Below are positions 4,446 through 57,371 of a DNA stretch of 64,000 nt, piece by piece. This DNA is from Saccostrea echinata (lineage: Eukaryota), in NCBI RefSeq assembly GCF_033153115.1, contig NW_026889766.1, forward strand, positions 2,418,001-2,482,000, read 5' to 3'. The notes under the pieces were generated by a model. That model was not told the origin of the DNA, searched no databases, and saw only the letters and a program-made list of their open reading frames with translations. Made by a program: the position numbers and the translations under genes. The stretch's first letter is position 1; the number at the start of each line of letters is the position of its first letter.

Positions 4446-4517
4446 TTACATATTGGCATATATCCCCTCTGTTGAAACAGACTGAGACACCAGCTGATAG
4501 CACCGTCTGTACTCCTC
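4446..4517 (-). CDS. Terminal coding exon ([23 protein letters not shown])
   Basis: tag acceptor, EYxxCY motif, TAA stop at 4446-4448. Confidence 0.92.
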   Translation of the reverse strand, partial: EEYRRCYQLVSQSVSTEGIYANM

Positions 4518-56400: not shown

Positions 56401-57371
56401 AATAATGGCCTAACAGTTAGTATGAAAAACGTCAGTCAGCATTTGACTCAATGATAGGCTGTATGTGCTGACAAGGCCATTGTATCGACCGTAGAACTTG
56501 CGAAAAGATGACTTCAAACGAGACTTTAGATATTCTTGTTTCATCAAGTTGTTTGTCAATAGATTGCCTCGTTTTAGAAATTGTTCATACGTACAGCATT
56601 CTCTTGCGTATCGAATCAACTGAGAGACATTAACCCCATATGCAGGTGATAAGGGTACATTGCTAAATAAGTAAGGGAAGTTGACGATTAAAATGTTGAA
56701 GTCAACACGCTAATCATAAAGCTTTGTTGTTGAAAGAGCTTTAATAAATCCATCAAGTACATTGGCGTACACTCAATGAATCATAGTGAGCTTTACTTAT
56801 AAAACTTAGAAATATTAAGCTATTTGAAAAGTGCTGCGATTCTTGTGAAAACTTGAAAATAAATCAGCAGCAAAAAAGAAAAATTACTATCTTACAAAAT
56901 TAATACTATTTTAACAATGATATTGGATCGGAGAACTTTAACAAATTATAATGCGTGTTGAAATTTTCAAAACTTAACTTACATCTTTCAATTTTTTTTT
57001 GGTCCTAAATTTCATTTAATTTTACCACATGCAAAGATATGAAAATAATAAGATGAAGAGGCTTAATTGTTTCTTTAACGTACATTTAGATATCCAGTTA
57101 GAGTAATACTCACCCATGACGCGAACTTCACATATTCCAATATCAACTTGGTTGTCTCCGTTTAGTATGCAATTATCATTAATTCTATCACCTAGTGTGT
57201 TGAAAAAGGCAACTCCTTGGTTAATTTTATTCAAAGTTATATTCATAATTCCATTTACAGGTATGCAACTTTCCTCTGCATTGTGTTGATAGACAAGACC
57301 AGTGCTTGATGGCGGATGATAATCTGTGTCATTGAAAATGTAAATCGAGAAACCCGTTGCTCTATAGAAAG
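4446..57371 (-). CDS. Multi-exon receptor-type tyrosine-protein phosphatase (lectin-like domain, 9 EGF-like repeats, TM, PTP D1, pseudo-PTP D2); 5'-partial, 29 exons in window
   Basis: Hand-spliced exons join in frame with GT/GC-AG boundaries. PTP motifs [45 protein letters not shown] and MVQTPEQY are present, with a TM segment and Cys-rich repeats upstream. Confidence 0.95.
4659..4794 (-). CDS. PTP D2 exon ([18 protein letters not shown]...[10 protein letters not shown])
   Basis: 136 nt, same length and phase as the D1 SAGVGR exon; [15 protein letters not shown] motif. Confidence 0.93.
5095..5219 (-). CDS. PTP D2 exon ([12 protein letters not shown]...SFTSLVISK)
   Basis: 125 nt, phase 0-2, same phase as the D1 VHC exon. 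Confidence 0.87.
5397..5519 (-). CDS. PTP D2 exon ([21 protein letters not shown]...HLAISSD)
   Basis: 123 nt open frame, phase 0-0, tag/gtaag boundaries. Confidence 0.85.
6533..6658 (-). CDS. PTP D2 exon ([42 protein letters not shown])
   Basis: IITQxPL..T..DxWRL motif, 126 nt. Confidence 0.93.
6957..7030 (-). CDS. PTP D2 exon ([25 protein letters not shown])
   Basis: DYINA motif, 74 nt. Confidence 0.93.
7158..7257 (-). CDS. PTP D2 exon ([10 protein letters not shown]...[13 protein letters not shown])
   Basis: Degenerate KNR...ILP motif, 100 nt, phase 0-1. Confidence 0.9.
7334..7480 (-). CDS. D1 end / D1-D2 linker exon ([10 protein letters not shown]...LYKEFK)
   Basis: QYxFxHxAL motif, 147 nt, phase 0-0. 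Confidence 0.93.
7973..8108 (-). CDS. PTP D1 exon ([17 protein letters not shown]...[11 protein letters not shown])
   Basis: Completes [10 protein letters not shown] and contains the Q-loop; 136 nt. Confidence 0.95.
9206..9348 (-). CDS. PTP D1 exon ([19 protein letters not shown]...VPLLVHC)
   Basis: WPD loop and catalytic VHC, 143 nt, phase 0-2. Confidence 0.95.
9523..9651 (-). CDS. PTP D1 exon ([12 protein letters not shown]...RKFSLERAH)
   Basis: KCxQYWP motif, 129 nt, phase 0-0. Confidence 0.93.
9788..9885 (-). CDS. PTP D1 exon ([33 protein letters not shown])
   Basis: DFWRMIW and IVML motifs, 98 nt. Confidence 0.95.
11226..11262 (-). CDS. PTP D1 exon ([13 protein letters not shown])
   Basis: YIAxQG motif, 37 nt, phase 0-1. 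Confidence 0.93.
12220..12296 (-). CDS. PTP D1 exon ([26 protein letters not shown])
   Basis: DYINA motif, 77 nt, phase 1-0. Confidence 0.93.
12479..12566 (-). CDS. PTP D1 exon ([29 protein letters not shown])
   Basis: KNR(Y/F) motif, 88 nt, phase 0-1. Confidence 0.93.
13041..13213 (-). CDS. Juxtamembrane exon (NETEVFDG...DDDGYYNTV...FHQEYK)
   Basis: 173 nt, phase 1-0; ends in the FxxEY motif that precedes PTP D1. Confidence 0.9.
13382..13482 (-). CDS. Juxtamembrane exon ([33 protein letters not shown])
   Basis: 101 nt, phase 2-1, open frame, tag/gtaat boundaries. Confidence 0.85.
13642..13753 (-). CDS. Transmembrane exon ([37 protein letters not shown])
   Basis: About 25 hydrophobic residues followed by basic RRHR in the next exon; phase 1-2. 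Confidence 0.93.
14284..14470 (-). mobile_element. Deu/Nin SINE, 3' half
   Basis: Matches 42462-42650. Confidence 0.85.
15113..15136 (-). CDS. Candidate 24-nt stalk micro-exon ((A)MSSTSPI(V))
   Basis: tttaag acceptor and consensus G|gtaagt donor. Phase 1-1 matches its neighbours, and the sequence is S/T/P-rich. Confidence 0.6.
15805..16653 (-). mobile_element. Penelope-like element, 3' part (RT thumb and 3' UTR), interrupted by a SINE
   Basis: [32 protein letters not shown] and QFVNRGRLL; 3' motif shared with the 46.3 kb and 56.3 kb copies. Confidence 0.85.
16192..16489 (+). mobile_element. Deu/Nin-domain tRNA-derived SINE, 5'-truncated, with 9-bp TSD ATTGAATCA
   Basis: Core tcggaatgagaccttaaaaccgag; TSD at 16183-16191 and 16490-16498. 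Confidence 0.85.
17221..21535. mobile_element. Non-autonomous DNA transposon with long degenerate TIRs and TTAA flanks (Kolobok/piggyBac-like target), rich in GTTGCCATGGTAAC
   Basis: Both ends read TTAA-N5-ATTCTCTGTAA..ACTT(A/G)AACTT, and inverted similarity extends to GTTGCTATGTGTC. Confidence 0.75.
18378..20943. mobile_element. Helentron-associated (HINE/pearl-type) element with internal 168-bp tandem array
   Basis: aacaagagg start, subterminal GGTCACCTGAG, 168-bp period (aatcaatagagcccc at 19882/20050/20218/20386), (ACGC/ACG) microsatellite, terminal hairpin GGTCACCTGAG-tga-CTCAGGTGACC. Confidence 0.9.
24272..25231 (+). mobile_element. 960-bp MITE copy 1 (CAGGTCG(A)GGAA TIRs)
   Basis: TIRs at both ends; flanked by TTTAA and TTCAA. 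Confidence 0.85.
28231..28530 (+). mobile_element. Deu/Nin SINE, second subfamily (different tRNA-like head)
   Basis: Head ttagagcg..ctagagtc..gtaaggag..gggttcgaatccc, same core, (AAAC)n tail. Confidence 0.88.
28697..29157. mobile_element. MITE (CAGGGGCGCAGCTT...AAGCTACGCTCCTG)
   Basis: 14-bp imperfect TIRs; internal tctagtgaggca direct repeats. Confidence 0.65.
31852..32170 (-). mobile_element. Penelope-like element, RT core part (continues at 16653)
   Basis: [44 protein letters not shown]. Confidence 0.85.
32534..32665 (-). CDS. EGF-like exon 9, type A, GC donor ([44 protein letters not shown])
   Basis: 132 nt, phase 1-1, cag acceptor, AAG|gcaag donor. Confidence 0.88.
33346..33477 (-). 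CDS. EGF-like exon 8, type B ([44 protein letters not shown])
   Basis: 132 nt, phase 1-1, aag/gtaga boundaries. Confidence 0.92.
36018..36149 (-). CDS. EGF-like exon 7, type B ([44 protein letters not shown])
   Basis: 132 nt, phase 1-1, tag/gtaga boundaries. Confidence 0.92.
36777..37132 (+). mobile_element. Full-length Deu/Nin-domain tRNA-derived SINE
   Basis: A box ggcagctcagtcggtagagc, B box gttcgaatc, core ttcggatgagaccttaaaaaccgaggtcc, (CAAT)n tail. Confidence 0.9.
37639..37770 (-). CDS. EGF-like exon 6, type A, GC donor ([44 protein letters not shown])
   Basis: 132 nt, phase 1-1. Donor is AAG|gcaag at the position where sister exons have gt. Confidence 0.88.
38176..38990 (-). mobile_element. 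Decayed mariner transposon
   Basis: TIR-like tacacgggggtgatcaaaaagttc; fragments DRQVTVR, NDAP (DNAP) and [12 protein letters not shown] (HPPYSPDLAPSD). Confidence 0.7.
39305..41566. mobile_element. Helentron-associated (HINE/CvA pearl-type) element with 166-bp oyster-satellite-like array
   Basis: aacaagaggtccatgggccacatcgctcacc start, 166-bp period (gaatctaca at 40212/40378/40544/40710), (GACA/GACG)n near 41445-41508, terminal hairpin agctcacttgagc..gctcaggtgagct. Confidence 0.92.
41711..41842 (-). CDS. EGF-like exon 5, type B ([44 protein letters not shown])
   Basis: 132 nt, phase 1-1, cag/gtaga boundaries. Confidence 0.92.
42015..42146 (-). CDS. EGF-like exon 4, type B ([44 protein letters not shown])
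   Basis: 132 nt, phase 1-1, tag/gtaga boundaries. Confidence 0.92.
42462..42760 (-). mobile_element. Deu/Nin SINE, second subfamily
   Basis: Reverse complement is colinear with 28231-28530. Confidence 0.88.
43791..43973. other. Assembly gap (183 N)
   Basis: Run of N. Confidence 1.
44059..44355 (+). mobile_element. Old, degenerate Deu/Nin SINE
   Basis: gggttcgaat B box, aaagtcgcgggtc..ccttaaaaaaagaggtcgcgtc core, gtgaaaaattc tail. Confidence 0.7.
45162..45262. mobile_element. 100-bp miniature inverted-repeat element
   Basis: GTCAGAACCACCTTAAACCAA / TTGGTTTAAGGTGGTTATGAC. Confidence 0.6.
45774..45905 (-). CDS. EGF-like exon 3, type A ([44 protein letters not shown])
   Basis: 132 nt, phase 1-1, 8 Cys, tag/gtaaa boundaries. 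Confidence 0.92.
46198..46358 (-). mobile_element. Penelope-like element, 3' UTR only
   Basis: Aligns with 56190-56347 (gaggtgggatcaggtgcc..gagcatcccctgccgaccgg). Shorter plus-strand tails occur near 7598-7680 and 26887-26976. Confidence 0.8.
46822..50768. mobile_element. TIR element (TGAGCCGTC(C/G)CATGCGAAAAGGGCCCTTA), about 3.9 kb with nested material
   Basis: 29-bp TIRs with 1 mismatch. Confidence 0.8.
51124..51258 (-). CDS. EGF-like exon 2 ([45 protein letters not shown])
   Basis: 135 nt, phase 1-1, 8 Cys, tag/gtaag boundaries. Confidence 0.92.
52044..52181 (-). CDS. EGF-like exon 1 ([46 protein letters not shown])
   Basis: 138 nt, phase 1-1, 8 Cys, cag/gtgac boundaries. The ORF track shows a different frame. 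Confidence 0.9.
52522..52932. mobile_element. MITE (AGGCCGTAACTA...TAGTTACGGCCT)
   Basis: Perfect 12-bp TIR; internal tgcctcactaaaa direct repeats, architecture like the 28697 element. Confidence 0.75.
54439..54602. repeat. Tandem duplication of about 76 bp
   Basis: aatgcagt.ataaattt.aatgtagtttaataactttataa..ggtttaaaagcgcaaa..ttttggtagt occurs twice. Confidence 0.85.
56190..56730 (-). mobile_element. Penelope-like element, 5'-truncated 3' end
   Basis: [46 protein letters not shown], followed by the conserved 3' UTR. Confidence 0.88.
57114..57371 (-). CDS. Exon: C-terminal half of F-type lectin/galactose-binding-like domain ([13 protein letters not shown]...[11 protein letters not shown])
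   Basis: 258 nt, phase 1-1, cag acceptor and gtgag donor. The GFSIY and ICEVRVMG motifs resemble the LCEVEVYG end of FTP/F5-8-type folds. An alternative acceptor at 57361 is possible. Confidence 0.8.

Follow-up and report, generated by a model that had tools for sequence, protein, structure and literature searches.

A stretch of 64,000 nucleotides from the oyster Saccostrea echinata (assembly GCF_033153115.1, contig NW_026889766.1, here C17; C17:2418001-2482000, G+C 33%), hereafter the window, carries on its minus strand a gene that almost certainly encodes a single-pass receptor protein tyrosine phosphatase (PTP) with a tip of F-type lectin fold, nine epidermal growth factor (EGF)-like modules, a first phosphatase domain (D1) with intact motifs and a second (D2) that lacks the catalytic cysteine. 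It lies in a tandem array in which other genes with the same ectodomain end in short tails of the ITAM type (immunoreceptor tyrosine-based activation motif). The most likely mechanism, to which we give a probability of about 0.5, is a family of paired receptors in which the gene would serve as the damping arm and the relatives with ITAM-type tails as the opposite one; the support that these array neighbours lend to an inhibitory role is circumstantial. Coordinates without a contig prefix are window positions.

The array was mapped over C17 1.47-2.77 Mb. The exon for the C-terminal half of the lectin has 60 matches in the genome, 32 on C17, 27 on contig C5 and one on C33, while PTP exons are far commoner genome-wide (at least 170 matches, from 150 scored candidates out of 1025). 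Gene units are begun by 27 lectin N-exons, of which seven lead to PTP exons, 16 to a homologous last exon that encodes the transmembrane (TM) segment and a short tyrosine tail, and four to neither. Intact short tails carry three tyrosines spaced about eight residues apart, and the ITAM consensus Yxx[I/L]x6-9Yxx[L/I], taken from 10.1101/2022.03.04.482883, occurs in nine of the 16. As judged from the sequences, the two tail types are dispersed across the tree of lectins. With labels assigned from the tail exons before any tree was built, tail type takes 6 changes on a tree of 21 units, compared with a shuffled mean of 6.1 (7 PTP and 14 short-tailed units; six units with no tail or no full C exon were omitted). 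A single clade of the seven PTP genes, a test run after the first tree had been seen, was rejected (approximately unbiased test, p-AU 8e-75). For five of the seven PTP genes the nearest lectin sits on a short-tailed gene (99, 92, 82, 78 and 75%), and for the remaining two on another PTP gene. Near neighbours with PTP and short tails were also found within Crassostrea gigas (79-80%) and within C. virginica (87%).

The closest counterpart is a predicted twin upstream of the gene (Table 1). Its 5' part comprises the signal peptide, a lectin with 158 of 159 residues identical and EGF1-7 at 91-100%, and the TM-PTP exons are missing. The predicted chain consists of signal peptide, lectin, eight EGF-like modules, linker, TM and tail, the last of which contains two ITAMs that overlap; the exons that encode it are stop-free and in phase, with AG acceptors and GT or GC donors. 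Sequence of intron 7 runs, past a 24 kb insertion, to C17:2538393, and it meets the intron of a short-tailed gene at C17:2538376. The junction between the intron 7 of the PTP gene and the intron of the ITAM gene was thus mapped within C17:2538376-2538393; one EGF exon at C17:2537569, the linker exon and the TM-tail exon, with its tail at C17:2536684, follow. This layout, together with the junction, is the pattern given by tandem duplication through unequal crossover. On C5 the block of ~130 kb with the twin is missing, and the same tail stands behind a different ectodomain. The joining of the twin's ectodomain to its tail is a genomic prediction; the public model P0279 gives the twin's tail and EGF7 a different lectin, from a gene that lies ~118 kb upstream, which counts against our reading.

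Two further units of the array are recorded here as side observations. The next gene downstream, also of lectin-EGF-PTP type, is interrupted on C17 by a stop in frame in one of its D1 exons (C17:2386468-2386373) but is open on C5 (C5:18362667), possibly a null allele or an assembly error. At C17:2634973, between EGF exons of a short-tailed gene, lies a TM exon of the PTP type that has no AG acceptor where one would be expected, possibly as the trace of an older tail swap.

The gene occupies 28 exons in the window, from 57371 down to 4446, and their joined frame is free of stops until a single terminal stop. Scripted joining of the upstream exon for the N-terminal half of the lectin gives 1225 open residues, which bears out the proposal of the initial annotation, made from the letters of the window, that a lectin-like fold, nine eight-cysteine EGF-like modules, TM and PTP D1-D2 belong to one protein. 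One correction applies, in that the window contains the C-half of the lectin only. The upstream exons whose existence had been anticipated were recovered 9.1-9.7 kb beyond the window end, as the lectin N-half and a signal-peptide candidate of 17 codons; the latter lies 358 bases upstream of the N-half exon, is placed as in the paralogues and is kept by three copies. All exons have AG acceptors, and donors are GT except for GC at the EGF exons 37639 and 32534. The EGF-like exons measure 132-138 nt and all run from phase 1 to phase 1. A 183-N stretch (43791-43973) falls within the intron between EGF3 and EGF4, and two near-identical gene copies have no exon there.

Table 1 Features of the receptor gene and its predicted twin, in order of transcription where they belong to the gene.
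Feature	Position	Strand	Remarks
Signal-peptide exon candidate	C17:2491668-2491617	-	conserved in C5 copy and in duplicate
Lectin N-half exon	C17:2491307-2491083	-	located by comparing upstream regions of three paralogues
3' part of intron between the two lectin exons	57372..64000	-	gene continues beyond window end
Lectin C-half exon	57114..57371	-	AG/GT, phase 1-1
EGF-like module 1	52044..52181	-	8 Cys
EGF-like module 2	51124..51258	-	8 Cys
EGF-like module 3	45774..45905	-	8 Cys
EGF-like module 4	42015..42146	-	8 Cys
EGF-like module 5	41711..41842	-	8 Cys
EGF-like module 6	37639..37770	-	8 Cys; GC donor
EGF-like module 7	36018..36149	-	8 Cys
EGF-like module 8	33346..33477	-	8 Cys
EGF-like module 9	32534..32665	-	8 Cys; GC donor
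Transmembrane exon	13642..13753	-	hydrophobic 19-mer, phase 1 in
Two juxtamembrane exons	13482-13382, 13213-13041	-	contain Tyr-x-Asn site
PTP D1, eight exons	7334..12566	-	17 protein letters (not shown) and Gln loop present
PTP D2, seven exons	4446..7257	-	catalytic Cys lost (ISKDGAG); ends IYANM with stop at 4446
Twin (predicted)	C17:2589631-2536389, ~100 kb upstream	-	duplicate of 5' part, ITAM-tail end

A colinear copy of the region, at ~88-99% DNA identity, is present on contig C5 and represents either the other haplotype or a segmental duplication. The gene copy there has the same exon order and is stop-free, with 12 EGF modules compared with nine on C17; the extra modules come from a 4.2 kb tandem repeat of EGF exons 3-5 (C5:18446562-18440711). 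Between the two copies, nonsynonymous divergence (dN) is 0.0096 and synonymous divergence (dS) 0.039 over 1205 codons, and this low dN relative to dS points to purifying selection. There are 9 changes in 159 residues of the lectin and 5 in 656 from TM to D2, and dN is 0.026 for the lectin versus 0.003 for the cytoplasmic part. A database model of the same gene, P0003, named by its source as Saccostrea echinata 'PTP epsilon-like', does connect EGF to PTP. A Logan contig of a 38%-identical relative covers the chain from EGF to D2 (875 residues) in 3127 nt; being intron-free, it implies a spliced transcript.

It is very unlikely that the gene model is wrong, with the lectin-EGF and TM-PTP exons belonging to separate transcripts or the locus being a pseudogene. 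Such an error would fit the 18.8 kb intron that separates the two sets of exons, the two GC donors, and the public model, from which TM, five of the EGF exons and the C exon of the lectin are missing. Yet exon phases agree, the C5 copy keeps the same order, stop-free and under purifying selection, a neighbouring gene has an intron of only 3.3 kb at the corresponding place, P0003 itself links EGF with PTP, and 69 of the 121 relatives among the top database matches carry the parts in a single chain.

Several features of the introns and stalk were noted in passing. The GC donors sit on one EGF exon sub-type and have been retained by the twin; two short-tailed genes also have them, on their final EGF exon. 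Such weak donors could permit exon skipping and hence stalks of varied length. In the intron between the lectin exons, broken DNA-transposon frames (59203-60096, plus strand) include a piece that matches Pfam DDE_Tnp_IS1595 (ISXO2-like) at E 2e-16. Satellite-like tandem arrays with 168-bp and 166-bp units occupy intronic positions 19765-20625 and 39510-41277, and open frames at 56125-56709 and 31887-32219, with look-alikes elsewhere in the region, are likely retrotransposon pieces; two of these frames gave no Pfam match. A weak PTP-like tblastn match at 26197-26132 (E 0.12) was taken as chance and left out of the dN/dS comparison.

The lectin tip, as modelled, has an F-type fold, in line with the galactose-binding-like fold initially expected of it. 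The C exon alone found no match in a protein search or in Pfam, and none of the single EGF exons matched Pfam; an Atlas search with the C exon returned bacterial sorting domains (best 0.82), which were judged unrelated. The N-half exon, in turn, matches FBP32 (3cqo, E 4e-5) and five other F-type chains, and Pfam F5_F8_type_C and F5_F8_type_C_2 at E 7e-4 and 4e-4, under the cut-off. The fold was modelled on the relative P0155 (lectin and first EGF, 45% identical in the domain) with a 60-row alignment that included both lectin exons of the present gene, and the model reached a predicted local distance difference test score (pLDDT) of 92. In a Foldseek search with it, F-type lectins took all of the first ten places and CBM32 modules ranked behind them, the best match being 3cqo (Foldseek E 1e-10; Z 19.6, root mean square deviation 1.8, 143 aligned), with 1k12 and 2j22 also matched. 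A sequence search of solved structures with the lectin+EGF protein of a relative gave no match. That the predicted fold is the relative's rather than that of the present protein tempers the assignment.

The binding pocket appears conserved yet altered. As defined in the available text of PMC5712786, F-type lectins carry the calcium motif h2DGx and the fucose motif His...Arg-x-Asp-x4-Arg/Lys. The calcium motif is kept as AVDGN in the N-half exon. The HxxxR/RxD fucose motif to which the initial annotation had pointed fails at its first residue, where Ile replaces His; both arginines and the aspartate remain. Loss of the triad's histidine makes canonical fucose binding doubtful. Across 66 domains, the present one among them, His occurs in 10, mostly from abalone, mussel and scallop, and the two arginines in 61 and 63. 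Compared with the F-type lectins AAA (1k12), MsaFBP32 (3cqo) and the streptococcal 2j22, the protein shares h2DGx, Arg-x-Asp, the second Arg and, as modelled, the fold, and it differs in the Ile, in a loop of x3 rather than x4 from Asp to the second Arg, in having no vicinal Cys pair, and in being membrane-bound with a phosphatase.

The phosphatase part is readily recognised. Pfam Y_phosphatase matches five single exons (E 0.0026 to 1e-11) and P0003 in two stretches (E 1.5e-105), and the best solved match of D1+D2 is RPTP alpha (E 9e-116), followed by epsilon and LAR. All catalytic motifs of D1 are present (pTyr loop, WPD, HCSAGxGR and Gln loop), and D2, with neither catalytic Cys nor WPD, is of the impaired type. 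The pTyr loop reads KNRF for KNRY, with Phe in 90 of the 121 top matches, Tyr in nine and 22 unmatched. This is a family trait, and a PTP1B trap with Y46F still retains substrates according to PMC8473724, so D1 is likely active as predicted from its sequence. An active-type D1 and an impaired D2 are also found in the vertebrate dual-domain receptor PTPs (RPTP alpha/epsilon, LAR, CD45), from which the oyster gene is set apart by its ectodomain, by KNRF and by its large tandem arrays. Elsewhere in the genome, two intron-free PTP domains (C25:21451240-21452790 and 21571329-21571988), in open frames of 863 and 988 residues, are possibly retrocopies or another PTP class.

These likenesses bear on a different role for the enzyme. 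RPTP alpha docks Grb2 via a Tyr-x-Asn site and activates Src, and the present chain ends IYANM. The phosphatase might accordingly prime signalling by removing the inhibitory Src-family phosphate, as CD45 and RPTP alpha do, with the C-terminal Tyr-x-Asn docking an SH2 adaptor. RPTP alpha and epsilon are the closest solved domains, the terminal Tyr-x-Asn recurs in 105 of the 121 top matches, and CD45 acts both positively and negatively, affecting Lck and Fyn both ways (PMC2213029, in the text available), a point that also tells against a purely damping function. We nevertheless regard priming as unlikely: best-hit rank is not orthology, and priming explains the matching of ectodomains with ITAM tails no better than damping does.

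For the damping arm of a paired system, we infer the following signalling steps. The tip would bind some ligand on a surface, likely a glycan or a different anionic group; canonical binding of fucose is improbable, given that the histidine is gone and the two arginines remain. The length of the EGF stalk, nine modules here and 12 in the C5 copy, would set the reach from the membrane. A shared ligand would cluster the phosphatase with its short-tailed relatives, whose tails would be phosphorylated by Src-type kinases and whose YxxL/I pairs would recruit Syk; D1 would then strip those phosphates and raise the threshold of the hemocyte response. Ectodomains would be exchanged between PTP and ITAM tails when the phase-1 introns between the EGF exons cross over unequally, thereby renewing matched pairs. 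Published work, in the parts available, describes ITAM-Syk signalling in oyster hemocytes for another ITAM receptor (PMC6994640), and binding and dephosphorylation of an ITAM (CD3 zeta) by CD45 D1 (PMC2213029).

Other observations speak against this mechanism. A strict ITAM is absent from seven of the 16 short tails, the C. virginica short tail has Met in its middle motif, and the third Tyr of six tails, the twin's included, also fits the immunoreceptor tyrosine-based inhibition motif (ITIM). At least one matched exon or fragment contains a stop in four of the seven PTP genes and in seven of the 16 short-tailed genes; many stop-bearing units are to be expected where copies of an array turn over neutrally to a large extent. 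The comparison of C17 with C5 gave no sign that the lectin is under positive selection: dS is raised there as well as dN, and the ratios of nonsynonymous to synonymous differences (Nd:Sd) are alike (Fisher p 0.40). On these grounds it is conceivable, though somewhat unlikely, that there is no functional pairing and that the gene is an ordinary receptor phosphatase of adhesion, growth, gamete or shell biology; the tails would then have become mixed neutrally, as a side effect of unequal crossover in an array that is rich in repeats and whose phase-1 exons are symmetrical. The numerous broken or fragmentary copies, the lack of the twin on C5 and the selection result all accord with such neutrality, as does the presence of oyster F-type domains in sperm bindin, some without the triad (PMC5712786, available text). 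Against it, the motifs of both tail types are kept in three oyster species, and snail relatives lie under two resistance peaks, as the available texts of PMC12297450 and PMC13712769 describe.

The architecture itself is not new, and our gene is, by its sequence, an oyster member of a described mollusc family. Relatives were counted among the best 120 of 4010 protein matches plus the C5 model, and full lectin, EGF, TM and D1 in one chain were found in 69 of these 121, from Saccostrea, Crassostrea/Magallana, Ostrea, Mytilus, Pecten, Ylistrum, Mya, Haliotis and Pomacea. The earlier description of the gene as a lineage-specific chimera was therefore too narrow, since its kind spans bivalves and gastropods and has been published for Biomphalaria (PMC12297450, PMC13712769). 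No protein named Biomphalaria is among the best 120 of the 4010 matches. Of the papers that a literature search listed, none is devoted, by its title, to lectin-EGF phosphatases of oysters or to paired receptors of molluscs. A sea-urchin class of lectin-bearing receptor PTPs ('PTPRLec') reportedly exists, although the name did not occur in the papers that a search listed; if real, it would mean that the architecture predates molluscs.

The snail family lies under two schistosome-resistance peaks, and no characterised member is shown in the available text of either snail paper. New here relative to them are the mixing of PTP and ITAM tails in one array and the mapped tail-swap junction. The oyster array offers a rare test, with two predicted receptors whose ligand-binding domains are 99% identical and whose tails look opposite. 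Were they to signal in opposite directions, invertebrate immunity would have a paired-receptor logic of which a fused phosphatase is part, crossover in phase-1 introns would be a simple genetic engine for new specificities, and the finding would be useful to oyster disease-resistance breeding.

The nearest known systems are those of the snails. In Biomphalaria sudanica, the text available of PMC12297450 reports 17 receptor-like PTP genes with a galactose-binding domain (GBD), multiple EGF (MEGF) modules, TM and tandem PTP, three of them in the schistosome-resistance region SudRes1. The oyster gene shares with these the GBD-like domain, multiple EGF, one TM, tandem PTP and clustered paralogues. 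EGF number at SudRes1 varies by haplotype, one of which shows EGF loss, much as the copies on C17 and C5 differ (9 versus 12), and neighbours there carry MEGF/GBD and no PTP. The oyster gene differs in its host and in the lost histidine of the fucose triad. The antistasin adjacency of the snail loci found no match inside the oyster array, the nearest being at C17:2963810, and the main text of PMC12297450, as available, has no occurrence of ITAM, inhibitory or oyster. Under the B. glabrata peak LG5R lie 'scavenger class F-like receptors', of which 1C combines fucolectin, EGF, TM and two PTP and 1B is the same with a small tail (PMC13712769, available text); tandem PTP or a small cytosolic part are thus the same two forms in one cluster. 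That paper describes the small tails as free of identifiable signatures, in contrast to the ITAM-type tails of the oyster; in the main text as available, 'ITAM' and 'decoy' do not occur, and tail swapping and near-identical opposite-tailed twins were not found. We tentatively suggest, at somewhat less than even odds, a paired system in which the phosphatase itself is the inhibitory arm and intronic recombination in the EGF array swaps tails, the twin being a swap on one haplotype and the same pairing being a mechanism for SudRes1/LG5R.

Two further comparisons place the receptor more widely. CED-1, Draper and MEGF10 are typified by an N-terminal EMI domain and a cytoplasmic NPxY. The link to CED-1/Draper/MEGF10/SREC drawn in the initial annotation holds for the shared 8-Cys EGF-like arrays, and extends to the public names of relatives and, in the short forms only, to ITAM-type tails; it fails for the rest, since the present protein has a lectin tip and PTP, the joined model leaves no room for EMI at its N-terminus, which is the lectin, and NPxY is absent from its cytoplasmic part. 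With the vertebrate paired receptors KIR and LILR (PMC3533184) and Hydractinia Alr (10.1101/2022.03.04.482883), as far as the texts available describe them, the array would share clustered genes, similar ectodomains, differing tails and an ITAM arm, a likeness of analogy with no homology implied. In those systems the inhibitory arm recruits SHP via an ITIM, whereas in the oyster the phosphatase would be fused into the receptor itself.

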